Below, in pieces: positions 1 to 46,719 of a stretch of DNA of 64,000 bases. A program made the translations under genes and the position numbers. Location: assembly GCA_964416335.1 (NCBI GenBank), contig CAYQDN010000014.1, positions 15,107 to 79,106 on the forward strand, in the 5' to 3' direction. The notes under the pieces were generated by a model that was not told the origin of the DNA, did not search any database, and saw only the letters and a list, made by a program, of their open reading frames with translations. Each line of letters opens with the position of its first letter. The first letter of the stretch is position 1. Source of the stretch: an uncultured Azospirillum sp. (GTDB taxonomy: Bacteria; Pseudomonadota; Alphaproteobacteria; CACIAM-22H2).

Positions 1-632
1 GCACGACGGGCATCTATTTCATCATGATCACGCTCGCCTTCGCGCAGATGGTCTATTTCTTCTTCGTCTCCTTGCGCGCCTATGGCGGCGACGACGGGCT
101 GCGCTTCCCCGGCGCGACGGTCGTCCTCGGCCTGATCGACACCGAAGACGACGTCGCGTTCTACTATCTCGTCTTCGCGATCCTGTGCGCGGTCCTCTAT
201 GCCGGCCATCGGCTCGTCAATTCGCGCTTCGGCCTGGTCGTGCAGGGCTGCCGCGAGAACGAGCGGCGCATGAAGGCGCTGGGCTTCCCGACCACGCGCT
301 ACAAGCTTGCCTGCTTCACCATCGCCGGTGCCGTGGCGGGGCTGGCCGGTGCGCTGCTTGCGGCACACGAAAGCTATATCAGCCCGTCGATCATGCACTG
401 GACGCGCTCGGGCGACCTGATCGTGATGGTCGTCCTCGGCGGCATCGGCACGCTGGTCGGGCCGGTCGTGGGCGCCGTCACGTTCCTGTTCCTGGAAAAG
501 ACGCTGCCCGACTATACCGAGCACTGGATGGTCGTCTTCGGCCCGATCCTGCTGCTGCTCGTGCTGTTCGCGCGGCGCGGCATCTTCGGCTGGTTCCGGC
601 CGACGGAGGTGCAGGATGGCGACCGCCCCTGA
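1..632 (+). CDS. Branched-chain amino-acid ABC transporter permease (LivM-like), C-terminal fragment. The gene starts upstream of the window.
   Basis: The ORF 24..632 is an in-frame hydrophobic C-terminus typical of LivM/LivH permeases. It is followed by translationally coupled livG and livF. Confidence 0.75.
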   Translation, partial: TTGIYFIMITLAFAQMVYFFFVSLRAYGGDDGLRFPGATVVLGLIDTEDDVAFYYLVFAILCAVLYAGHRLVNSRFGLVVQGCRENERRMKALGFPTTRYKLACFTIAGAVAGLAGALLAAHESYISPSIMHWTRSGDLIVMVVLGGIGTLVGPVVGAVTFLFLEKTLPDYTEHWMVVFGPILLLLVLFARRGIFGWFRPTEVQDGDRP

Positions 633-1377
633 CACGCTTCTTGCGGTCGACCGGCTGGTCAAGCGCTTCGGCGGCCTGACGGCGACCGACAACGTGTCGC
701 TCGACGTGCGGCGCGGCGAGATCCACGCGATCATCGGGCCCAACGGTGCCGGGAAGACCACCTTCATCGCCCAGCTTGCCGGCGAACTGAAACCCAACGG
801 CGGTTCCATCCTGTTCGACGGGGCGGACGTCACGGCCCTGGGCGTCGATGCGCGCGCCCGCCTCGGCATCGCGCGCTCCTACCAGATCACCCAGGTCTTC
901 GCCGGGTTCACGGCCCTCGACAATGTCGCGATGGCCGTGCAGGCGCAGGACGGGCATTCCTTCCGCTTCTGGCAGAAGGCACGCACGCAGGGATCGTTGC
1001 GCGATCCCGCCCGCGCGATCCTCGCGCGCGTCGGGCTCGAGGCGCGCGCCGACGTGCGGGCGGCGAACCTCGCGCATGGCGAGCAGCGCCAGCTCGAGAT
1101 CGCCATGGCGCTGGCCACACGCCCGCGCCTGCTGCTGCTCGACGAACCGATGGCCGGCATGGGCAAGGACGAGTCCGAGCGCATGACGCAGCTGCTGTCC
1201 AGGCTCAAGCGCGAGGAGACGATCCTGCTGGTCGAGCACGACATGGACGTGGTCTTCGCGCTCGCCGACCGGATCACCGTCCTCGTCTATGGCCGCGTCA
1301 TCGCGTCGGGCACGCCCGATGCGATTCGCGGCGACGCGGAAGTCCGCGCCGCCTATCTGGGGGACGGCGATGCTTGA
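616..1377 (+). CDS. livG: Branched-chain amino-acid ABC transporter ATP-binding protein LivG
   Basis: Walker A motif GPNGAGKTT, the ABC signature and a LivG-type C-terminus. The start overlaps the end of the permease gene. Confidence 0.85.
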   Translation: MATAPDTLLAVDRLVKRFGGLTATDNVSLDVRRGEIHAIIGPNGAGKTTFIAQLAGELKPNGGSILFDGADVTALGVDARARLGIARSYQITQVFAGFTALDNVAMAVQAQDGHSFRFWQKARTQGSLRDPARAILARVGLEARADVRAANLAHGEQRQLEIAMALATRPRLLLLDEPMAGMGKDESERMTQLLSRLKREETILLVEHDMDVVFALADRITVLVYGRVIASGTPDAIRGDAEVRAAYLGDGDA

Positions 1378-2062
1378 GGTCGAGAATCTCGAGACCAGCT
1401 ACGGCGCAAGCCAGATCCTGTTCGGCATCTCCTTTACGGTCGCCGCGGGCGAGGTCGTGACGCTTCTGGGCCGCAACGGCATGGGCAAGACGACGACCGT
1501 GCGCTCGATCATGTCACTCACACGTCCCAAGGCCGGCTCGGTGCGGCTCGACGGCAGGGCGATGACGGGGCTGCCCGCCTATCGCGTGGCGCAGGCCGGC
1601 ATCGGGCTGGTGCCCGAAGGCCGCCAGATCTTCCCGAACCTGACGGTGCGCGAGAATCTTGTCGCCACCGCGCGACCGGTCGCGGGCGGCTGGACGCTCG
1701 ACAAGGTGCACGGCTATTTCCCGCGGTTGGCCGAGCGCGCGTCCAACATGGGCAACCAGCTGTCGGGCGGCGAACAGCAGATGCTCGCCATCGGCCGCGC
1801 ACTGATGACGAACCCGAAGCTGCTGATCCTCGACGAGGCGACCGAGGGCCTTGCCCCGCTCGTCCGCCAGGAAATCTGGCGGTGCCTTGCCGCCCTCAAG
1901 GCCGAGCGGCAGGCGATCCTCGTGATCGACAAGAATCTTGAGTCTCTTCTGAAGCTTGCGGACCGCCACGTCGTCGTCGAGAAGGGCCGCGTGGTCTGGC
2001 AGGGCGGCTCGCGCGAGCTGGCGGCCGCCCCGGAAATCCAGCATCGCTATCTCGGCGTCTGA
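1370..2062 (+). CDS. livF: Branched-chain amino-acid ABC transporter ATP-binding protein LivF
   Basis: N-terminus MLEVENLETSYG, Walker A motif GRNGMGKTT and signature LSGGEQQML. The ATG at 1370 overlaps the livG stop. Confidence 0.85.
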   Translation: MLEVENLETSYGASQILFGISFTVAAGEVVTLLGRNGMGKTTTVRSIMSLTRPKAGSVRLDGRAMTGLPAYRVAQAGIGLVPEGRQIFPNLTVRENLVATARPVAGGWTLDKVHGYFPRLAERASNMGNQLSGGEQQMLAIGRALMTNPKLLILDEATEGLAPLVRQEIWRCLAALKAERQAILVIDKNLESLLKLADRHVVVEKGRVVWQGGSRELAAAPEIQHRYLGV

Positions 2063-2240
2063 TCGTCCTTGACCTGCTGACTCCGCCTCCTTCATGATTC
2101 TTGGGTCGAGGTCCGGTCGATTCGCCCGTTCATCGGGAGAGTGGCTGGATGGGTGGGCGGCCCTATCCGTCCTTCCGGCGACCGATACGACGTCCGCGCG
2201 GGATCGCGGGCCGGTCGCCGCCACGAAAGGAGGTGATCCA

Positions 2241-2360
2241 GTGCGCACAGGATCGTTCAATTCCGGCTTCGTGCCGGTGCTTGCCGTGACCGCTTTGGAG
2301 AAATTCGAAGCTGGCCATGCGCGGACGACGACCTCAGCGATCGCCTCCGACGTGGAATGA
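2241..2360 (+). CDS. Candidate small ORF of 39 aa with a GTG start, preceded by a near-perfect Shine-Dalgarno sequence. It may instead be a structured non-coding leader.
   Basis: The sequence GAAAGGAGGTGATCCA, complementary to the 16S 3-prime end, lies 7 nt upstream of GTG 2241. The ORF ends at TGA 2358-2360, just before two hairpins. The codon bias is only moderately GC3-rich. Confidence 0.2.
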   Translation: MRTGSFNSGFVPVLAVTALEKFEAGHARTTTSAIASDVE

Positions 2361-2395
2361 CGGGCCGCAAGGCCCCTTAACGGCATTCGATCCGA

Positions 2396-2433
2396 CCCCC
2401 GCCGGGTCCCGCCCGGCGGGGGTTTCGATTCTT
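2396..2433 (+). terminator. Rho-independent terminator-like hairpin with an 11-bp GC stem (cccccgccggg / cccggcggggg) followed by TTTCGATTCTT.
   Basis: The hairpin is seen directly in the sequence. It is preceded by a second GNRA-loop hairpin, GGGCC-GCAA-GGCCC, at 2362-2375. It lies at the left edge of the AT-rich island. Confidence 0.6.
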
Positions 2434-2500
2434 ATGGACTAGTCCGTCCAATAAATTGAAAATCAAATAAAATCGATCTTTGATTGTTTTGAGGCAAAAG

Positions 2501-3535
2501 ATGAAGCGGTTCGATACGCGCCCCTACAGCGTTGCCGATTTTATCGAATGGACTGCAAATGGACTCTTGAATTTGAGCCCAGATTTTCAGCGGCGCTCGG
2601 TGTGGAAAGAGTCTGCCCGCTCGTACTTAATCGACACACTATTGCGCGGCCGACCGATTCCGAAAATATTGATCACCCAACATTTAAAGGCAGGAAAAAC
2701 CGTCCGTGTCGTTGTCGATGGGCAGCAGAGGCTTCGCGCAATTTTAGACTATGTCTCAGACTCATTTAAGATTTCCAAAGCCCACAACCCAGAATTCCCG
2801 GTCGTATACTCAAAGCTTCCTGAAGAGATGCAGGATGCTCTCAGAACTTATGAAATATCTTGCGACCTGCTTTATGGCGCTGAGTACGAAGAAATATTAG
2901 ACATCTTTACACGCTTGAACGCGTACACGGTTCCGCTTACTCAACAGGAAAAGCTGAACGCAGAGTACGTCGGCTACTTCAAGCAAACGTCCTACAAAAT
3001 CGGCTATAAATACGTCAAATACTGGTTGGATTCCGGTGTCTTAAGCCAAGATCGAATTGCTCGAATGGGGGAAGCGGAATTGGCCTCCGACCTCACAATC
3101 GCAATGCTCTTTGGCGTTCAAACAAGCAAATCGATTCCGACATATTACAAGCGTTTTGAAGACAACGACACTGCGCTCAAAAATGCTGAGGTTCGATTTG
3201 ATCGAGTCATGTCGATAGTTGGCGCCATATATCCAGTGGCAGAACTTAAAGCGTCGATCTGGAAGAAGGGGCCGTTGTTCTACACCCTTTTTGGAATTGT
3301 CGCTCACAGCCAGTACGGAGTTGCTGGCGTCATTTCAGATCGTCCGAAAATCAACGAAAAGGCGCTTGCTAAGACCCGACAGCGCTTGGATGAAATTGGC
3401 GCGCTTCTGGACCGAAGTCCGACGACCCTCAATAGGGATCAGTTAAAATTCGTCGATGCGTCAAAGCGGCGCACTGCGGACACAAAATCAAGAGCATTCC
3501 GCATCGCATATGCGTGCAAAGAGCTGATCAAATAG
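2501..3535 (+). CDS. DUF262 / ParB-like nuclease-domain protein, of the GmrSD/BrxU N-terminal domain type. It is stand-alone, with no DUF1524 HNH-like domain.
   Basis: The N-terminal motif LSPDFQRRSVW (FQR..W) and the DGQQRL motif (nt 2717-2734) are hallmarks of DUF262. A GAGG RBS lies at 2491-2494 before ATG 2501. The gene sits inside a low-GC island. Confidence 0.8.
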   Translation: MKRFDTRPYSVADFIEWTANGLLNLSPDFQRRSVWKESARSYLIDTLLRGRPIPKILITQHLKAGKTVRVVVDGQQRLRAILDYVSDSFKISKAHNPEFPVVYSKLPEEMQDALRTYEISCDLLYGAEYEEILDIFTRLNAYTVPLTQQEKLNAEYVGYFKQTSYKIGYKYVKYWLDSGVLSQDRIARMGEAELASDLTIAMLFGVQTSKSIPTYYKRFEDNDTALKNAEVRFDRVMSIVGAIYPVAELKASIWKKGPLFYTLFGIVAHSQYGVAGVISDRPKINEKALAKTRQRLDEIGALLDRSPTTLNRDQLKFVDASKRRTADTKSRAFRIAYACKELIK

Positions 3536-3556
3536 CCACAAGTCGGTTTCGCCAAA

Positions 3557-4237
3557 ATGGCCCGCCTTCCAATTACAAGGGTTCCACTTGCTAAGCTCGA
3601 GAAGCATCTTAAGAGCATCGAGAAAATTGACTCAAACAATAGAAAGAGACTACTTCCGAAGCTGGCGCCCATTACGGGTGGCCATGCGCCGATACTATCG
3701 GTGGTGGCCCGCAAACAGAAAAAGTTGGAGCTAGAAACTCTGACAGAAGGACTCTACCTAGCAGTGCATAGAGAATTCGAGGAATTTCTCGAGAGAATAT
3801 TTATGCTTTATCTATCAAGATCAAATTACGTATCGATGTTGGGGGTTAAGGCCCTTGTGCAACCAAAGTCAGAAGAGCACGCGCGCAAATTGTTGAAGGG
3901 CGCTCATCGGGGTAGAGTTGACTGGAACGACACGGGGGTAGTGGCGGATAGAGCGGATATTTATTTTAAATCCGGACAACCATTCTCAGTTGTAATACGT
4001 CCGCGCCAAGCGATTCTCAAGGAAATGCAAATCATAAGGAACCGAGTTGCACATAGCAGCGGCGAAGCTGAAACGAAATTTCAAAATGTCGTGACTGCTT
4101 ATTTCTCGGTACCTCCAATCAATAGAGTTCAGCCTGGAGAATTTCTAAATCTTCCAGCCAAAGCGACGCCATCAATTTCAAATTTTCACTATTTTATTTC
4201 CGTAATTAGAGCGGTGTCTCGAGGCTGTACAGTTTGA
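3557..4237 (+). CDS. Hypothetical protein with a canonical HEPN-type Rx4-6H motif (RNRVAH). It is a putative HEPN RNase partner of the DUF262 protein.
   Basis: The motif IIRNRVAHSSGE lies at residues 161-166 (nt 4037-4054) and is followed by an alpha-helical region. A 21-bp gap separates it from the DUF262 gene. It has the same low-GC composition, and no other recognisable domain was found by eye. Confidence 0.45.
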   Translation: MARLPITRVPLAKLEKHLKSIEKIDSNNRKRLLPKLAPITGGHAPILSVVARKQKKLELETLTEGLYLAVHREFEEFLERIFMLYLSRSNYVSMLGVKALVQPKSEEHARKLLKGAHRGRVDWNDTGVVADRADIYFKSGQPFSVVIRPRQAILKEMQIIRNRVAHSSGEAETKFQNVVTAYFSVPPINRVQPGEFLNLPAKATPSISNFHYFISVIRAVSRGCTV

Positions 4238-4310
4238 TGGTAATTGGACAAATAGCCTTTTAGTGTAGTGCGATTGCTAACAAACGTCAGAAACCGTTGT
4301 TCCTAGAATT

Positions 4311-5087
4311 ATGACCCAGACCGATCTCCTGATCGACAATCCCGCACCCGGCGTGCGGCGCCTCACGCTCAACCGGCCGGCCGCGCGCAACGCGCTGTCG
4401 ACCGACCTGCTCGGCCTCGTCGCCGACGCGCTCGACGCCGCGGCGGACGACGACGAGGTCCGCGCGGTCGTCCTCACCGGCGGCGAGAAGATCTTCGCGG
4501 CCGGGGCCGACATCAAGGAACTCGCCAGCCGCAACGCCGTGACCGCCCTGCTCGACGCGCGCGTGGGCCACTGGCAGCGCATGCGCCGCTTTCCCAAGCC
4601 CGTCGTCGCCGCCGTGTGCGGCTTCGCACTTGGCGGCGGCTGCGAGCTTGCCATGCATGCCGACATCGCGATCGCCGGCGAAAGCGCCAGGTTCGGCCAG
4701 CCGGAGGTCAATCTCGGCGTCGTGCCGGGTGCCGGCGGCACGCAGCGCCTGGCGCGCATCGCCGGCCAGCAGGTCGCGATGAAGCTGATCCTGTCGGGCG
4801 AGATGATCTCGGCAGCAGAAGCCCACGCCTGCGGGCTCGTCGCCGAAATGGTTCCCGACGCCGATGTCGGCGCGCGCGCGGTCGCCCTTGCCGCGAAGAT
4901 CGCCGAGAAGCCGGTCCTCGCGATCCGGCTGGCCAAGGAACTGGTGCTCGCCGCGCGCGACGTGCCCCTCGAGCAGGGCCTGCAGTTCGAGCGCAAGGCG
5001 TTCGCCACGCTCGTCGCCAGCGAGGATTTCAAGGAAGGGGTCGCCGCCTTCATCGAGAAGCGGCCGGCCAAATTCAAAGGACGCTGA
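4311..5087 (+). CDS. Enoyl-CoA hydratase/isomerase (crotonase family)
   Basis: The sequence VLTGGEKIFAAGADIKEL and the crotonase fold signature are present. The protein is 258 aa. Confidence 0.85.
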   Translation: MTQTDLLIDNPAPGVRRLTLNRPAARNALSTDLLGLVADALDAAADDDEVRAVVLTGGEKIFAAGADIKELASRNAVTALLDARVGHWQRMRRFPKPVVAAVCGFALGGGCELAMHADIAIAGESARFGQPEVNLGVVPGAGGTQRLARIAGQQVAMKLILSGEMISAAEAHACGLVAEMVPDADVGARAVALAAKIAEKPVLAIRLAKELVLAARDVPLEQGLQFERKAFATLVASEDFKEGVAAFIEKRPAKFKGR

Positions 5088-5271
5088 GAGGCGCTTGATT
5101 TCGCGCGGAACGTGTTATAGAGTAATTTCCTAATTGCTCTTTGACATGGTGAATATGCGCGCACCATGCCGGCAGGTCGAGGCCGGGCGGCGCGGCGTGC
5201 GGCCGGGCACGGACTACAAAAAGCGGAAAACGCGTGTTGCAGTAACATCCGTTTAACTTCAAATAGATAAA

Positions 5272-5288
5272 TAGGTTACGGTAACCTA
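5272..5288. repeat. Perfect 17-bp palindrome TAGGTTAC-G-GTAACCTA within an AT-rich convergent spacer
   Basis: Seen directly in the sequence. Five GTAAC motifs and a second inverted repeat CATGGTG-N10-CACCATG (5145-5168) lie in the same 290-bp spacer. Confidence 0.5.
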
Positions 5289-5377
5289 TATACCCCCGTC
5301 CGGTTGCCTGTCGTAACCTCTACATTCGGCCATCGGTAACATCGATGCGGCGTCGCCACGGTTTGCGTAAATAAATC

Positions 5378-5899
5378 CTATGGTGCGCGCGGTGCCAGCG
5401 GCCGGCGCCGGTCGAGTTCGATCAGCAGCCGGCGTGCCCGGTCCGCCTCGCCGGGTGCGAAGCCCACCGCGACGCGCGCCGCCGCGATCCGTGCACGCTC
5501 GAAATCGGCCCCCTGCAGCAGCCGCCCGGCGCGTGCCGCATAGGCATAGGCGAGCGGCAGGTCGCGCGTCACGCCGGCCCCCTGCTCGTGCATCAACGCG
5601 AGATTGAGCATCGCCTGCGGATCGCCCTGCTCGGCCGCGCGCGTGAACCACTGGGCCGCAAGCGCCTGGTCCGCCGGCACGCCCTCGCCCGCACGATAGA
5701 GATGGCCGAGCGAGAACTGCGCGTCGCGGTGGCCGCGCTCGGCGGGCCCGATCCAGAAGAACCACGCCGTCGCCGGATCGCCGTCGAGATACGCCTTGAG
5801 CCCGGCCTCGTAGGTCGTGGCGTCTTCCTCCGGCGTCTGCGCGTGCACGGGAAGCACGGCGACGAAGGCGACGAGCAGCGCGCGGATCGCCGCCCTCAT
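5378..5899 (-). CDS. Secreted Sel1-repeat (TPR-like) protein
   Basis: The signal peptide MRAAIRALLVAFVAVLPVHAQ is followed by Sel1-like repeats (GHLYRAGEGVPADQALAAQWFTRAAEQG...). The gene is translationally coupled to the upstream EamA gene by an ATGA overlap. Confidence 0.7.
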   Translation of the reverse strand: MRAAIRALLVAFVAVLPVHAQTPEEDATTYEAGLKAYLDGDPATAWFFWIGPAERGHRDAQFSLGHLYRAGEGVPADQALAAQWFTRAAEQGDPQAMLNLALMHEQGAGVTRDLPLAYAYAARAGRLLQGADFERARIAAARVAVGFAPGEADRARRLLIELDRRRPLAPRAP

Positions 5900-6774
5900 C
5901 CGTCCCCCTTGAGCTTGCGCTCGCGGTAGAAGACGTAGATGCCCGCCGCGACGACGACCGCGGTTCCGGCCAGCGTCGCCGGGCTCGGAACGTCGCCGAA
6001 CAGCGCGAAGCCGAACAGCGCCACCCAGACCATCTGCACGTAGACGTAAGGGGCGATGACCGAGGCGCGCGCGTAGATATAGGCTCGGCTCAGGCAGTAG
6101 TGCCCCATCGTTCCGAACGCACCCATGCTGGCCAGCAGCAGCCATGCCGCCATGTCCGGCGTGCGCCAGACGAACGGGACGGTCGCCGAGAAGATCGCCG
6201 CCCCGACGACTCCCGATATGGCGATGCCGATGTCGGGGCTGTCGCTGCTCGCGAGGGCCCGCGTCATCAGGTGGAAGCAGGCGTTGAGGGCCGCACACGC
6301 AAGGCAGAGGAGTGCCGCCCAGTGCATCGAATCGCCGGTCGGCCGGATCACCAGCAGCACGCCCACGAAGCCGACCGTGACGGCGGCCCAGCGGCGCGGG
6401 CCGACCTTCTCGCCGAAGAAGAAAAACGCGATCGCGGTCAGGATCAGCGGCATCGTGAAGCTGATCGCCTGCGCGTCGACCAGCGGCAGGTAGCGCAGCG
6501 TCGTGAAGAACATGAACGTGATGAGGCTGATCAGGACCGCGCGGCCGATCTGCAGGCCCGGCCGGTTCGTCGCGAAGGACCGCCGCAGGCCGCGCCGGTA
6601 GATGAAGGGCAGGATCACCACGACCTGGAAGAAGTAGCGGCCCCAGACGACCTGCAGCGGGTGATATTCGCGCGTCAGATACTTGGCGACCGTGTCCAGC
6701 ACCCCGAAGCACAGCGTCGTTCCGCAGACCAGCAGGATGCCGATCCAAGCCCGGCTTTTCGGTCGGTCGTTCAT
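5896..6774 (-). CDS. EamA/DMT-family transporter (RarD-like)
   Basis: A 10-TM hydrophobic profile and EamA-type repeats. Confidence 0.75.
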   Translation of the reverse strand: MNDRPKSRAWIGILLVCGTTLCFGVLDTVAKYLTREYHPLQVVWGRYFFQVVVILPFIYRRGLRRSFATNRPGLQIGRAVLISLITFMFFTTLRYLPLVDAQAISFTMPLILTAIAFFFFGEKVGPRRWAAVTVGFVGVLLVIRPTGDSMHWAALLCLACAALNACFHLMTRALASSDSPDIGIAISGVVGAAIFSATVPFVWRTPDMAAWLLLASMGAFGTMGHYCLSRAYIYARASVIAPYVYVQMVWVALFGFALFGDVPSPATLAGTAVVVAAGIYVFYRERKLKGDG

Positions 6775-6823
6775 GGCCCCAATGTGCCAAATATCGGCCG
6801 CGAGGGGAAATGTCCCCGGCGCT

Positions 6824-7741
6824 TCAGACCTTCAGCGCGACGTAGAAGAGGATCGCCATCGCGACCGCGGCGGCGGGCATGATCCACAGCCCCTCGCCCA
6901 GCCGGCCCTTGTTGCGCAGGTTGAAGATGTGGCGGATGCCGGCCCCCACGCAGGCGAGGCCCGCGAGCAGCGCCCAGTTCCAGTCGTGGCCCCACGTGCT
7001 GGCGTAGTTCTTCGACAGCATGATGAAGATGATCGGCAGCGTGAAATAGTTGTTGTGGAGCGAGCGGAACTTCGCCTGGTTCGCGAAGCGGTACTGCGGC
7101 GGGCGGCCCTCGCGCGTCGCGTCGACCAGCTCGCGCTGGTTGGGGATGATGATCATCCACACGTTCGCGGTCATGATCGTGCCGATCACCGCACCGACAT
7201 GCATGTAGGCCACGTGCGGCGCCATGACCTGCGTGAGGAACCACGCCAGCAGCACCAGAAGCACGAAGGTCGTCACAGTGGCCGCAAGCGCATTGGCTTC
7301 CGCCCAGGCCGACTTCCACAGCAGGTCGTAGACCGTCCACGACACCGCGATGACGGCGAGCGAGAACAGCGCTGCCCCCAGCGTGCCGAGATCGGCGAGC
7401 AGCGGATGGGTCAGGAACGAGCCGCCGGAGCCGACGTAATAGACGACCGCGAGCAGCAGGATCCCCGACATCCACGTGAAGCCGGCCTCCCACTTGAACC
7501 AGTGCAGTTCCTTGGGCAGGACGGGCGGCGCGACGGCGAACTTCTCGACGCGGTAGAAGCCGCCGCCATGCACCAGCCACGTCTCGCCCTCGACGCGATC
7601 GCGCGGGGTTTCGGGCGGCCGGAATTTCGATTCGAGCCAGTTGAAGTAGAACGACGACCCGATCCACGCGATGCCGGCGATCACGTGCGTCCAGCGCACG
7701 ACCAGGTCGATCCATTCTTGGAAGAGCTGCAGGAAACTCAT
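6824..7741 (-). CDS. DUF989-family integral membrane protein (PuuD-like urate hydroxylase membrane domain). No CxxCH haem motif is present.
   Basis: N-terminus MSFLQLFQEWIDLVVRWTHVIAGIAWIGSSFYFNW. The gene is polytopic and lies immediately downstream of hiuH in the same orientation. The internal ATG 7741 was chosen as the start. Confidence 0.6.
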   Translation of the reverse strand: MSFLQLFQEWIDLVVRWTHVIAGIAWIGSSFYFNWLESKFRPPETPRDRVEGETWLVHGGGFYRVEKFAVAPPVLPKELHWFKWEAGFTWMSGILLLAVVYYVGSGGSFLTHPLLADLGTLGAALFSLAVIAVSWTVYDLLWKSAWAEANALAATVTTFVLLVLLAWFLTQVMAPHVAYMHVGAVIGTIMTANVWMIIIPNQRELVDATREGRPPQYRFANQAKFRSLHNNYFTLPIIFIMLSKNYASTWGHDWNWALLAGLACVGAGIRHIFNLRNKGRLGEGLWIMPAAAVAMAILFYVALKV

Positions 7742-7757
7742 CGTCGGCCGTCTCCGT

Positions 7758-8108
7758 TCAGGACCCGCGATAGGTCGAATAGCTCCACGGGCTGACGAGC
7801 AGCGGCACGTGGTAGTTGCCGGCGGGTTCCGCGATGCCGAACGCGATCGTCGCGACATCGACGAACGCCGGCTCGGGCAGCGCCACGCCGAGCGACCTGA
7901 AATACGCCGCCACGTGGAAGCGCAGCTCGTACTTCCCCGTGCGGAAGCTCGCGGCGTCGAGCAGCGGGCGGTCCGCCTTCCCGTCGGCATTCGTCAGAAA
8001 GTCGCCGATCCGGACGGGCTGCGCGTCGGCCCGGAAGAACTCGACCTTCATGCCGGCCGCCGGCCGGCCGTTCATCGTGTCGAGCACATGGGTCGAAAGC
8101 TTTGCCAT
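7758..8108 (-). CDS. hiuH: 5-hydroxyisourate hydrolase (transthyretin-like)
   Basis: The 116-aa protein begins MAKLSTHVLDT and ends in the HIUase-diagnostic C-terminus YRGS. Confidence 0.85.
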   Translation of the reverse strand: MAKLSTHVLDTMNGRPAAGMKVEFFRADAQPVRIGDFLTNADGKADRPLLDAASFRTGKYELRFHVAAYFRSLGVALPEPAFVDVATIAFGIAEPAGNYHVPLLVSPWSYSTYRGS

Positions 8109-12395: not shown

Positions 12396-13634
12396 TCACT
12401 CGTTCGCGAGCGCTTCCAGGCAATCGGCCAGCACGCGCGCACCGGCCGCAAGATCGGAAGGTGTCGCGGCCTCGGCCTCGTTGTGGCTGATGCCGCGCTC
12501 GCACGGCACGAAGATCATGCCCGCGGGTCCGTGCGGGGCGACATGCATCGCGTCGTGCCCGGCCCCCGACGGCATGTCCATGTTCGACAGCGCGAGTGCG
12601 GACGACTTGGCGCGCACCAGATCGACGATGCGCGGATCGAACACCGTGGGTGCCACGCTGTTGATCCGCTCGACCTTGGCCGTGCACGGGCCGACGCTTG
12701 CGGAAACCACCGAAGGGATCGCGTCGCCGAGCCTTGCGAGGACGGCCGCATCGGGATGGCGGAAATCGATCGTGAAATGCACCTGTCCGGGCACCGTATT
12801 GGGCGAGCCCGGACGGCATTCGAGCCGCCCGACGGTGAAGCGCACGATGTCGGCGGGATCGTGCATGTGCCGTTCCAGCGCCTGGATCGCGGCGACGGCG
12901 GACTTGAGCGCGTCCTTGCGCACGCGCAGCGGCGTCGTGCCCGCATGCGCTTCCTCGCCGAAGATATCGATCGTATAGCGCTGCGAACCCTGGATCCCGG
13001 TCACGACGCCGATCGTGCGACCGTCGGCTTCCAGCCGCGGGCCCTGCTCGATATGCGCCTCGATATAGGCATGGAAACGCCGGTCGAACCCCTGCACGAC
13101 ACGGCAGGGCGCGGCCACCAGCGTCGAGGCCAGCGCATCGGCAACCTTCGTGCCCGAGCGGTCTTCGACCGCGAGCATCTTCGCAAGATCGTACTGGCCG
13201 GCCCACACGGCCGAGCCCATGGCACCGGGCTGGAAGCGGCTGCCCTCCTCGTTCATCCACGCGACGACTTCGACCGGCCGCCTCGTTCGGATGCCGGCAT
13301 CGTCGAGGGCCTCGAGCGCTTCGAAGCCGGCGAGCACGCCGTACATCCCGTCGTACTTGCCCCCGGTCGGCTGGCTGTCCATGTGCGATCCGGTCAGCAC
13401 TGGTGCCGCTTCATTGTCAGCACCTGAACGCCGGACATAGAGATTGCCGATGGGATCGCCATAAACATCGTAGCCGCGCGCGGCGGCCCAGCCCGCGAGC
13501 AGCTTGCGCGACGCCGCGTCTTCGGCGGACAGGGCCTGCCGGTTGACGCCCCCCTTCGGAAGGCCGCCGATCTTCGCCATGTCGACATGGCGCTGCCACA
13601 GGCGGGACTGGTCGATCTTGTCGGATGCGGGCAT
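12396..13634 (-). CDS. Zn-dependent M20-family amidohydrolase (allantoate amidohydrolase / N-carbamoyl-amino-acid hydrolase family, AllC-like)
   Basis: A 412-aa protein with the metal-binding M20 motifs of the AllC/AmaB family. An AAGGAG RBS is present. It lies directly downstream of ureG. Confidence 0.75.
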   Translation of the reverse strand: MPASDKIDQSRLWQRHVDMAKIGGLPKGGVNRQALSAEDAASRKLLAGWAAARGYDVYGDPIGNLYVRRSGADNEAAPVLTGSHMDSQPTGGKYDGMYGVLAGFEALEALDDAGIRTRRPVEVVAWMNEEGSRFQPGAMGSAVWAGQYDLAKMLAVEDRSGTKVADALASTLVAAPCRVVQGFDRRFHAYIEAHIEQGPRLEADGRTIGVVTGIQGSQRYTIDIFGEEAHAGTTPLRVRKDALKSAVAAIQALERHMHDPADIVRFTVGRLECRPGSPNTVPGQVHFTIDFRHPDAAVLARLGDAIPSVVSASVGPCTAKVERINSVAPTVFDPRIVDLVRAKSSALALSNMDMPSGAGHDAMHVAPHGPAGMIFVPCERGISHNEAEAATPSDLAAGARVLADCLEALANE

Positions 13635-21186: not shown

Positions 21187-21449
21187 TGTCCCGATTTCGA
21201 CTTCCACTGTTCGACCGTCAATCCGTTCGCCGCCCAACCTTTGATGGCTGGTACCGGATTCTTTCGTTCGGACGGCGGATGATGCCGATTCACCTACATG
21301 CGTTCAAGCAAGCCTTTGGCCAATGTTCTGAAAATTAGACGGTCTTTTTCACGGCGAAGTCGTTACGCGAATAGTCGCGCTCAACCTGCTGATTCAATGC
21401 CGATTCCGATTTTGCAAAAGACACACACTGTGGATAACTCGGGGACAAA

Positions 21450-22250
21450 TCACGCCCGGCGATCGGCCTGCCGTGTGCCGAAATAGGCAAGCACCGCCAC
21501 GACGCCAATCATAATGGCAGCAAGGGCGTTTATCTGAGGCGAAAGGCCGAGCCGGACGCTCGAATAGACGAGCATCGGCAGGGTCGTGGCGCCCGGCCCG
21601 GAAACGAAACTCGCGATGACCAAATCGTCGAGCGAAAGCGTGAAGGCAAGCAGCCAGCCTGCCGCGACGGCCGGCAGCAGCAGCGGAAGGGTCACCCGCG
21701 CGAACGCGCGCAAGGGCCCTGCCCCCAAGTCGAGAGCCGCCTCCTCAAGCGCCGGTTCGATGCCGCGCAGCCGCGCCTCCACGATTACCGCGACGAATGC
21801 CGTCCCATACGTCGCGTGGGCGAGCGCAATGGCGACCATTCCGCGCTCGCCCGGCCAGCCGACCAGCCGGTCGAGCGCGGAATAGGTCATCAACATCGAC
21901 AGACCCAAAATCACTTCGGGCAAGACCATCGGGGCGAGCAGCAGCAACGCGAACAAGGTCCTCAGCCGGAAGCGGCCAAGCCGCCCGAGCGAATAGCCTG
22001 CGAGCGTGCCGAACACCGCCGAGACGGTGCCGGCGAGTGCCGCGATGCCAAGGCTCAGCCAGGCAGCGTCAAGCATGCGCGTATTTCCCAGCAATTCGGC
22101 GTACCAGCGCGTGGAAAAACCGGCCCAGACGGTCACGAGCCTGCTTTCGTTGAAGCTGAAAACGACGAGCAGCAGGATCGGCAGATAGAGAAACGCAAAA
22201 CCCGCTGCAAGCAGGGCCGGAAGTCGCGGCAGGAAATCGGCGGGCTTCAT
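21450..22250 (-). CDS. ABC transporter permease (PotC/PotI-like)
   Basis: A polytopic protein with a binding-protein-dependent permease motif. An ATGA overlap couples it to the upstream permease gene. Confidence 0.8.
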   Translation of the reverse strand: MKPADFLPRLPALLAAGFAFLYLPILLLVVFSFNESRLVTVWAGFSTRWYAELLGNTRMLDAAWLSLGIAALAGTVSAVFGTLAGYSLGRLGRFRLRTLFALLLLAPMVLPEVILGLSMLMTYSALDRLVGWPGERGMVAIALAHATYGTAFVAVIVEARLRGIEPALEEAALDLGAGPLRAFARVTLPLLLPAVAAGWLLAFTLSLDDLVIASFVSGPGATTLPMLVYSSVRLGLSPQINALAAIMIGVVAVLAYFGTRQADRRA

Positions 22251-45166: not shown

Positions 45167-46143
45167 CCGTACCGTTGCTGCAAGTCATCAATCTCAAGAA
45201 GCACTACCCGATCCGCAAGGGGTTGTTCGGCCAGCAGGCCGCGACCGTGTACGCGGTCGATGGAATCACGTTTCATGTCGACGCCGGCGAAACGCTGGGA
45301 CTTGTCGGCGAGTCGGGCTGCGGCAAGTCGACGGCCGGCAAGGCGATCCTGAAGCTGGTCGAGCCGACATCCGGCATCGTGCGGCTGATGGGTACGCGCA
45401 TCGACAGTCTTGGACGGGCGGAGATGTGGCCCCACCGGCGCGACCTGCAGGTCGTCTTCCAGGACCCCTACTCCTCGCTCAGTCCCCGGCTGTCGGCCGG
45501 TGCAATCGTCGCCGAGCCGCTCACCAACTACGGCATCGCGAAAGGTGCCGAAGCGCGCGAGCAGGTCGCCTGGCTGTTCGAGAAGGTCGGGCTACGCCCC
45601 GAGCAGATGGACCGATACCCGCACGAATTCTCCGGCGGGCAGCGCCAGCGCCTTGGCATCGCCCGCGCGCTCGCGGTTCGTCCGAAATTGATCGTGGCCG
45701 ACGAACCGGTCTCTGCCCTCGACGTTTCCGTCCAGGCGCAGGTCATCAACCTGATGACCGATCTGCAAGCCGAGTTCGGGGTCTCGTTCCTTTTCGTCGC
45801 CCACGACCTTGCCGTGGTCGAGCATATCAGCCACCGCGTCGCGGTCATGTATCTTGGCAAGATCGTCGAGATCGCGGATCGCCGAACCATCTTTTCGGCT
45901 CCGCAGCATCCGTATACCGAAGCGCTCCTTTCGGCGGCACCGCAGCCGAACCCGCGCGTGAAAAAGAAACGCGTCATCCTCAGCGGCGATGTCCCGTCGC
46001 CGATCAACCCGCCCGCCGGCTGCCGATTCCATACGCGCTGCCCCTATGCCGAGGCACGCTGCCGCGTCGAGGAACCGGCGATCAAGGAACTCGCACCCGG
46101 CCACCAAGTTGCCTGCCACTTGCGCCAACCGAGCCAGAAATGA
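45163..46143 (+). CDS. ABC transporter ATP-binding protein (DppF-like)
   Basis: The N-terminus [16 protein letters not shown] with Walker A and signature motifs. ATG 45163 overlaps the dppD TGA. Confidence 0.85.
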
Positions 46144-46144
46144 C

Positions 46145-46290
46145 TGATATTTGTGCGTTGCAATATTAGTATTATGCTTAATATACTGACTTAATATAAT
46201 ATTATATTGCACTGCAATAATTCTTGTGCGACGATGCATTCAGTCGATTCCGGGAGGTGACGTCCGATTTCTCGAACGCTGGGAGGTTGG
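46145..46290. promoter_or_regulatory. AT-rich promoter/operator region with a tandem direct repeat CTTAATATA-ctga-CTTAATATA and an inverted repeat TTGCAATAT...ATATTGCA
   Basis: Seen directly in the sequence. It lies upstream of the thioesterase gene and downstream of the dpp operon end. Confidence 0.4.
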
Positions 46291-46719
46291 ATGACCTACA
46301 TCGCGCAGGAACGACCCGATGCCTCCGGTACGCTTGGCCTTGCCGGCCCGAGGGGCGAGCTCGCGTCGCGCACGCTTGCGATGCCGGCCGACACCAACCC
46401 GCGCGGCGATGTCTTCGGCGGATGGATCATGTCGCTGATGGATGTCGCCGGAAAGATGAGCGCGACCAGATACGCGCACGGGCGCGTGGCGACGGTCGCC
46501 GTCTCGAACATCGTCTTTCACCGTCCGGTCAAGGTCGGGGATACGGTCTGCTGCTATACGGATCTCCGCAAACTCGGGCGGACCTCGATCACGTTCGATG
46601 TCGAAGTCTGGGTCCTGCGCCAGGGTCATGGCGACCGGGTTCGTGTAACCGATGCGAGCTTCACCTTCGTCGCCCTCGATGAAAAAGGGCGACCGCAGCC
46701 GCTGGCCGCCGACGCCTGA
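46291..46719 (+). CDS. Acyl-CoA thioesterase (hotdog fold, YciA-like)
   Basis: A 142-aa hotdog thioesterase sequence. Confidence 0.8.
   Translation: MTYIAQERPDASGTLGLAGPRGELASRTLAMPADTNPRGDVFGGWIMSLMDVAGKMSATRYAHGRVATVAVSNIVFHRPVKVGDTVCCYTDLRKLGRTSITFDVEVWVLRQGHGDRVRVTDASFTFVALDEKGRPQPLAADA

Follow-up and report, generated by a model that had tools for sequence, protein, structure and literature searches.

A foreign DUF262–HEPN gene pair in an uncultured Azospirillum genome: a probable anti-phage cassette with the architecture of PD-T4-2

A 64,000-nucleotide (nt) stretch of DNA from an uncultured Azospirillum sp. (contig CAYQDN010000014.1; hereafter the window, about 64 kilobases [kb]) holds a short islet of foreign composition with two genes on the forward strand, which we call gene A and gene B. 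The product of gene A is a DUF262 protein without the DUF1524 nuclease domain of GmrSD, BrxU, and SspE, and the question raised by this locus is what such a protein does and which partner, if any, supplies its effector. We consider it probable that the two genes constitute a self-contained, horizontally acquired anti-phage cassette of the PD-T4-2 type, in which gene A would act as sensor and switch and gene B as a HEPN ribonuclease (RNase) effector. The features on which the argument rests are as follows.

2501..3535, forward strand: gene A, 344 amino acids (aa), a DUF262 domain (ParB/Srx fold) followed by a helical C-terminal domain; presumed nucleoside triphosphate (NTP)-dependent DNA sensor/switch
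2501..2974, forward strand: DUF262 domain of gene A, residues 1 to ~158, as delimited by the Pfam match, the family alignment, and the AlphaFold2 model
2585..2605, forward strand: DUF262 motif I, FQRRSVW, residues 29–35
2717..2731, forward strand: DUF262 motif II, DGQQR, residues 73–77
2906..2920, forward strand: DUF262 motif III, FTRLN, residues 136–140 (F136 to N140)
2975..3532, forward strand: C-terminal domain of gene A, residues 159–344, all-helical and ParBDB-like in prediction, lacking HNH/DUF1524
3557..4237, forward strand: gene B, 226 aa, stand-alone HEPN protein; presumed RNase effector
4037..4060, forward strand: gene B motif R161-N-R-V-A-H166-S-S168, an Rx4H motif of the catalytic HEPN type

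The two proteins of the islet

Gene A ends with a stop codon at 3533–3535. The longest possible open reading frame (ORF) opens at TTG 2480; however, all homologues begin with MK.FDTR in the family alignment and a GAGG Shine-Dalgarno sequence (2491–2494) precedes ATG 2501 with a spacer of 6 nt, and we therefore place the start at ATG 2501. The Pfam model GmrSD_N/DUF262 (PF03235) matches residues 25–156 (E = 2.3e-21; 77.3 bits vs. a gathering score of 33.2), and the three motifs QRxxxW (Q30, R31, W35), DGxQR (D73, G74, Q75, Q76, R77), and FxxxN (F136, N140) are without variation in a 47-sequence alignment of the family, which confirms the two DUF262 hallmarks (motifs I and II) that a sequence-only reading had recognized in 2501–3535. 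Two residues between motifs II and III, S92 and H95 (KIS.AHN; 2774–2785), are likewise invariant in the family and lie outside the classical DUF262 motifs.

The same reading had claimed that no DUF1524/HNH domain follows the DUF262 domain, and this holds: neither gene A nor gene B matches a DUF1524 or HNH model in Pfam, NCBIfam, or PADLOC (E ≤ 1), and the DHIYP-like motif [DE]H[IVL]xP was not found in gene A, which has three histidines in the whole protein. The AlphaFold2 model of gene A (predicted local distance difference test [pLDDT] 88) renders residues 160–344 entirely as helices with no beta strands, and this predicted all-helical structure excludes a beta-beta-alpha-metal finger in the region. 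What did not hold is the description of gene A as a truncated version of a DUF262 enzyme. A search of 5.8 billion proteins yielded 2177 homologous clusters, and among the 120 homologues listed all but two are 345–355 aa long; setting aside the protein of the window itself (P0001), the listed homologues are ~50% identical to gene A over essentially the whole query, and the C-terminal half contains many invariant or near-invariant positions in the 47-sequence alignment. The family is therefore uniform in length with a conserved helical C-terminal domain.

The identity of this C-terminal domain is suggested by the Menshen protein NsnA. Among PADLOC models, NsnA is the best match to gene A (E = 7.4e-29, over the N-terminal domain) and scores higher than PD-T4-2_A (E = 1.4e-19, profile positions 39–207 of 363, the DUF262 core); in two close relatives of gene A (P0023 and P0038), the NsnA model is matched across both domains (positions 46–373 of 385). 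A ParBDB DNA-binding domain has been described for NsnA under a definition that covers NsnA, SspE, GmrSD, and DndB (Li et al. 2025, PMC12065111), and the end-to-end match in the close relatives suggests that the C-terminal domain of gene A corresponds to it. PADLOC REase_II models match gene A weakly (E = 1e-15), PHROGs returned only unannotated DUF262 families for gene A and none for gene B, and an NCBIfam search of both genes gave nothing useful. In fold comparison, the best structural matches of gene A are BrxU, PadC, SspE, and DndI, with BrxU the best solved structure; the fold is also near that of ParB, and the ParB, Noc, and KorB CTPases are among the structural matches. PDB sequences searched with the family profiles of gene A and gene B contained no significant relative, so that gene A is related to solved proteins at the level of the fold only. 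In BrxU, SspE, and GmrSD, the DUF262 domain binds and hydrolyses NTPs, senses modified DNA, and controls the nuclease domain (PMC10952713, PMC12065111); the sequence-only reading, which had described DUF262 as an NTP-using sensor of modified DNA in these enzymes, agrees with this literature.

Gene B begins 21 nt past the stop codon of gene A on the same strand. NCBI annotates a 177-aa protein that starts ~147 nt downstream of ATG 3557; the 226-aa form is supported by homologues that align from residue 1 and by a pLDDT of 98 at residues 11–30. Gene B of the window matches nothing in Pfam, NCBIfam, PADLOC, or PHROGs (E ≤ 1 for Pfam and PADLOC), and a word-index search with it found itself as the sole sequence match. 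Its relatives were reached through the genes of ~205 aa that lie directly 3′ of gene A homologues in Pseudomonas chlororaphis, Alcanivorax, and Arenibacter, which align to gene B from residue 1 at 24–29% identity. A profile built from these partners matched 151 clusters, and an exhaustive hidden Markov model search of 1.84 billion representatives recovered 1487 relatives (E ≤ 1e-3), 776 of them with E ≤ 1e-10; the best 150 of the 1487 are small stand-alone proteins, mostly ~200–217 aa long. The gene B of the window has an insertion of ~20 residues (about residues 34–53) that is absent from relatives.

Comparison of the predicted structure of gene B places it in the helical-bundle HEPN fold, with matches to HI0074, TTHA0636, YutE, and the HEPN toxins of HEPN-MNT systems (8xdj, 7ae2, and 5yep), the last being the best. 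The residues R161, N162, H166, and S168 do not vary among 50 sequences, and RNxxAH is present in 72 of 74 gene B partners. Within the 50 relatives, HEPN_RiboL-PSP (PF18735) is matched by 11 at E < 0.01 (best E = 1.5e-5; the hit with a reported score has 21.2 bits, under the gathering score of 28.4 bits) and HEPN_MAE_28990 (PF18737) by two at E < 0.01, with reported scores under the gathering cut-offs; one gene B cluster carries a precomputed PF18735 match and two are named RiboL-PSP-HEPN by UniRef. Based on these sub-threshold matches and names in the relatives, gene B is classified as a divergent RiboL-PSP-type HEPN protein. The domain identities of the two proteins and the intactness of their motifs are thus directly established.

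The pair as a conserved and mobile unit

When one genome per species was scanned, 80 loci were recovered, of which 71 are non-redundant with an identity to gene A of 40% or more. The 71 loci span more than ten phyla and include Alpha-, Beta-, and Gammaproteobacteria, Bacteroidota, Ignavibacteriota, Actinomycetota, Chloroflexota, and Planctomycetota, in addition to Patescibacteria, Spirochaetota, Deinococcota, Acidobacteriota, Nitrospirota, and others. A full-length gene B lies directly 3′ of gene A on the same strand in 65 of the 71 loci. Two loci have gene B fragments only by ORF calling, three have an interrupted or truncated gene A with B-like sequence still found downstream by tblastn, and one has an IS110-type insertion in gene A. 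In the 64 pairs that were scored automatically with longest-ORF starts, the distance between the genes ranges from −47 to +17 nt, with a 4-nt overlap in 15. The pairwise identities of the two proteins are strongly correlated (r = 0.87 over 74 pairs; Mantel test, 0 of 2000 permutations), gene B diverging faster with a mean identity of 32% vs. 52% for gene A over the same pairs. Gene A and gene B are one co-diverging two-gene unit, and both the operon pairing and the co-divergence are direct observations. The window copy is a deep branch of this family, its nearest gene A relatives being 56% identical and its nearest gene B relatives at most 31%. The proposal, made from the sequence alone, that the downstream HEPN-like gene provides the effector in trans is supported by the HEPN fold, the invariant Rx4H motif, the pairing in 65 of 71 loci, and the co-divergence.

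The unit is mobile. It is found on the conjugative plasmid pRE117-1 of Glutamicibacter beside a Fic/VbhA toxin–antitoxin module (gene B identified with an hhalign probability of 99.9%), and six IMG/VR viral contigs carry gene A, five of them with the partner. In some genomes the pair adjoins integrases and SymE, HepT/MNT, and Fic toxin–antitoxin modules, and in some it adjoins ThsB/TIR, GajA, DRT, or type II restriction-modification genes, or SLATT together with a reverse transcriptase. In Arenibacter (locus L009, 7875–10204), the pair is directly followed by an EcoRI-like adenine methylase and by another DUF262 protein, which has a weak Pfam HNH match, and an integrase lies ~5 kb downstream (12922–13065); this locus has the appearance of a small defence island in which two distinct DUF262 systems are neighbours. 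Decayed copies of the pair are frequent. In one locus (L065, 6930–9187), the 3′ end of gene A carries an inserted IS110-type transposase, gene B is frameshifted beside an intact gene A in the complete genome of P. chlororaphis CP097271 (L005, 7065–7678) and intact in sister strains, and gene A is frameshifted beside an intact gene B in Hymenobacter piscis (L080, 6001–7737).

In the window, the pair occupies an islet whose composition departs sharply from that of its surroundings. The islet and the elements at its left border are the following.

2425..4310, no strand: low-GC islet, ~1.9 kb, containing gene A and gene B only
2395..2423, forward strand: hairpin with a perfect 12-base-pair (bp) stem, a 5-nt loop, and a T-rich tail, in host-type high-GC DNA
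2425..2500, forward strand: AT-rich leader (32% GC) with a Shine-Dalgarno sequence at 2491–2494

The guanine-plus-cytosine (GC) fraction of the islet is 0.40–0.52 vs. 0.65–0.74 in the flanks, and at third codon positions (GC3) it is 0.545 in gene A and 0.432 in gene B vs. 0.88–0.90 in the neighbouring genes, which encode an ABC-transporter ATPase (ending at 2062) and an enoyl-CoA hydratase (starting at 4311). The islet is the sole extended low-GC segment of the window; short dips of 300–400 nt with 52–54% GC occur elsewhere at 5101–5400, 21201–21500, and 46001–46400. The cassette is horizontally acquired and the islet is unameliorated, its foreign origin, like the mobility of the pair, being directly established. 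The hairpin sits exactly at the left border of the islet and probably terminates the operon upstream, and the leader presumably holds the cassette's own promoter; a promoter consensus scan passed no site in 2425–2500. Between the stop codon of the ABC-transporter ATPase gene and the islet lies a high-GC stretch of 330 nt (2094–2423) that contains an 88-aa ORF (2094–2360). An RNA gene or a tRNA-type integration site in the structured high-GC segment 2100–2425 was considered and rejected, as Rfam (1900–4500, E ≤ 1) and tRNA/tmRNA (1–8000) scans were empty. No direct or inverted repeats were found on either side of the islet, which also has no integrase. Metagenome contigs were scanned for an empty site, with the enoyl-CoA hydratase protein as the query; identity to the best relatives does not exceed 59%, and none has the order ABC-transporter ATPase, then enoyl-CoA hydratase (in one locus, L167, an ABC ATPase is present downstream of the hydratase gene). 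Because no empty-site relative was found, the insertion borders of the islet rest on composition only.

A proposed mechanism and its alternatives

In the anti-phage cassette that we favor, gene A would bind phage-derived DNA during infection, possibly DNA that is modified or otherwise non-self. Binding and hydrolysis of NTP at the DGQQR pocket would then change the conformation or the oligomeric state of gene A. Gene B, which probably acts as a dimer that forms a composite Rx4H site, would thereby be licensed to cleave RNA of the cell or of the phage. The result would be a halt to translation and to phage growth, by either abortive infection or direct arrest. The role in defence, the RNase activity, and the nature of what gene A senses are predictions of this model, and we infer rather than observe that gene A activates gene B instead of restraining it.

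Several observations weigh against this assignment. Many copies of the pair, including that of the window, are flanked by plain housekeeping or metabolic genes and not by defence islands, and HEPN domains are sometimes non-catalytic. The PD-T4-2_A model of PADLOC covers only the DUF262 core of gene A and the PD-T4-2_B model matches neither gene B nor three gene B relatives; because of this mismatch, function is carried over from PD-T4-2 by architecture and not by close homology. In the searchable literature, neither PD-T4-2 nor any other DUF262–HEPN pair had a published mechanism that we could find.

The main rival is a toxin–antitoxin or addiction module in which gene B is a constitutively active toxin and gene A its antitoxin, such that the pair stabilizes mobile DNA and defence is at most a side effect. 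In favour of such a module, both genes are small, their coupling is tight, and overlaps are common, the pair resides by Fic/VbhA on a conjugative plasmid and by SymE and HepT/MNT modules elsewhere, and the best structural matches of gene B are themselves toxins. With 344 aa, an NTPase-type pocket that does not vary, and a further conserved domain, however, gene A goes far beyond the needs of a neutralizer. The frameshifts in H. piscis (intact gene B, disrupted gene A) and P. chlororaphis (the reverse) suggest in addition that neither gene is indispensable for surviving the other, although these are weak, single cases and the frameshifts may be assembly errors. On balance we regard an addiction module as unlikely. 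A different division of labor would make gene A itself the nuclease, a ParB-like DNase acting in the manner of type IV restriction, with the HEPN protein as an accessory regulator or RNA-binding subunit. The term "ParB nuclease" used by Anantharaman et al. 2013 (PMC3710099), the weak REase_II match, and the label "ParB-like nuclease domain" under which two structural neighbours, PadC and the pNOB8 ParB-N domain, were deposited speak for this arrangement; in BrxU, SspE, and GmrSD, however, cleavage is carried out by DUF1524 while DUF262 is the NTPase and sensor (PMC10952713), and the invariant RNxxAH of gene B points to a catalytic HEPN domain. We consider a nuclease role for gene A quite unlikely.

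That the pair belongs to housekeeping or regulation outside any conflict, for example to RNA processing linked to DNA binding, would account for the many copies among ordinary metabolic genes, but it fits poorly with a patchy spread over more than ten phyla at ~50% identity, with the foreign composition and the plasmid and viral copies, and with the frequency of decayed copies and the differences in gene B integrity among P. chlororaphis strains; such a role seems to us improbable. Hardest to credit is the idea that gene A is a GmrSD/BrxU-type enzyme in decay, once full-length and now without its DUF1524 domain. BrxU is indeed the best solved-structure match of gene A, yet the narrow length range of the 120 listed homologues (from 2177 clusters), which cover the query end to end, the conservation of the C-terminal columns, and the conserved partner gene 21 nt past the stop codon all oppose decay, and a truncated GmrSD is refuted by the uniform family length together with the conserved C-terminal domain.

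The anti-phage cassette therefore remains the reading that we carry forward. Only one DUF262–HEPN pair, PD-T4-2, has been validated in anti-phage defence, and the present pairs form a larger, phylum-spanning family that has the same architecture, moves as a co-evolving unit of 1.7–1.9 kb, and is missed by PADLOC models; it comprises at least 2177 gene A clusters (90% identity) and about 1500 gene B clusters (50% identity). A broader proposal, which we advance tentatively and would not yet call probable, is that these pairs represent a large uncatalogued DUF262–HEPN defence family missed by defence-finder models, whose trigger and RNA target may differ from those of PD-T4-2, and that the sensor, DUF262 plus helical domain, may be a general plug-in, paired in the present family with HEPN RNases, in relatives from Lachnospiraceae and Thiotrichaceae with Ser/Thr kinases, and in Menshen with NsnB/NsnC. 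The pair also offers a minimal two-protein system, both members of which have high-confidence predicted structures, for how a ParB-fold NTPase may couple DNA sensing to an RNase. For the annotation of the window, the one islet of foreign composition in its 64 kb receives an explanation, and gene B a corrected start.

Comparison with known DUF262 and HEPN systems

Menshen (NsnABC; Millman 2022; Li et al. 2025, PMC12065111) resembles the window pair in its sensor, as NsnA shares the two-domain DUF262 plus ParBDB architecture of gene A. It differs in what follows: in Menshen, NsnA is succeeded by the ATPase NsnB and the effector NsnC, whereas in the window gene A is succeeded by the 226-aa HEPN gene and then by enoyl-CoA hydratase. 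Identity with Menshen was rejected, given that NsnB and NsnC are absent from the window locus and that the HEPN partner is also present in 65 of the 71 loci. The contrast with GmrSD, BrxU, and SspE is of another kind. These enzymes carry a DUF1524 His-Me nuclease, which is found neither in the gene A polypeptide nor in the neighbouring gene, and their effector is a DNase, whereas that predicted for the window is an RNase-type HEPN protein. HEPN-MNT systems (HepT/MntA), in turn, pair the HEPN toxin with a nucleotidyltransferase antitoxin; the islet contains no such gene, and the partner of gene B is instead the upstream DUF262 gene.

More distant relatives of gene A, at 31–34% identity, occur without a gene-B-type HEPN partner in Lachnospiraceae and Thiotrichaceae (loci L082–L088). 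In the two of these loci that were inspected (L083, 5998–7883, and L087, 4741–8168), a Ser/Thr protein kinase gene follows the gene A relative; the L083 kinase matches Pfam Pkinase (E = 1.9e-33) and is PD-T4-6/mad6-like in PADLOC, and L087 has a DGQHR (DndB-like) gene upstream and a DUF262 protein with a Cys-rich C-terminal extension. In Thermomicrobiales (L089, 5989–7715; 31% identity), the partner is a 220-aa HEPN-like protein with the motif CRNYLAH that belongs to a different sequence family, its hhalign match to gene B being marginal. These loci suggest that the DUF262 sensor pairs with different effectors.

The closest architectural counterpart, which the sequence-only reading does not mention, is PD-T4-2 of Escherichia coli ECOR65 (Vassallo et al. 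2022), which was selected for T4 resistance and whose deletion from the native strain restores T4 plaquing (PMC9519451). The system is listed as "DUF262, HEPN": PD-T4-2A is a DUF262 protein (HHpred 99.7), and PD-T4-2B, which is unannotated, has HEPN_RiboL-PSP (97.8) and HEPN_MAE_28990 (96.9) as its HHpred matches (PMC9519451, Tables S1–S3). Like the window pair, PD-T4-2 consists of a DUF262 protein of ~350 aa without DUF1524 followed by a small stand-alone HEPN gene, and the top families of PD-T4-2B are those that gene B relatives match below threshold. The window cassette is 1737 bp long, with a gene B of 226 aa, vs. 1540 bp for PD-T4-2. When three gene B relatives were run through PADLOC, two had no match and one had marginal matches to REase_II (E = 0.024) and CARF_HEPN (E = 0.045). 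As judged by the PADLOC models, which set the two apart, the window pair appears to be a sequence family separate from PD-T4-2 with the same architecture, and because PD-T4-2_A is matched in its core only and PD-T4-2_B not at all, PADLOC-type annotation would not call it.

Two prophage-borne pairs were also considered as PD-T4-2 itself: in E. coli phage vB_EcoM-689R6 (ON470584; L090, 1747–4688), a DUF262 gene and a small partner with the motif ARNACAH lie by an integrase at the icd end, and in Klebsiella phage ST16-OXA48phi5.4 (NC_049450; L181, 2363–4266), a DUF262 gene and a small partner lie between P2-like phage tail genes. Both were rejected by the PADLOC models, none of which matches the partners; the partners have a weak likeness to gene B around RNxxAH.

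The association of a small HEPN gene with a ParB-fold gene had been noted earlier by comparative genomics, which placed RiboL-PSP-HEPN and MAE_28990 HEPN genes "in operon with ParB" without giving a mechanism or an experiment (Anantharaman et al. 2013, PMC3710099); unlike those families, gene B of the window matches no Pfam HEPN model. Given PD-T4-2 and this operon link, the DUF262–HEPN architecture is already known, and what is new here is a divergent DUF262–HEPN family that lies outside current models.

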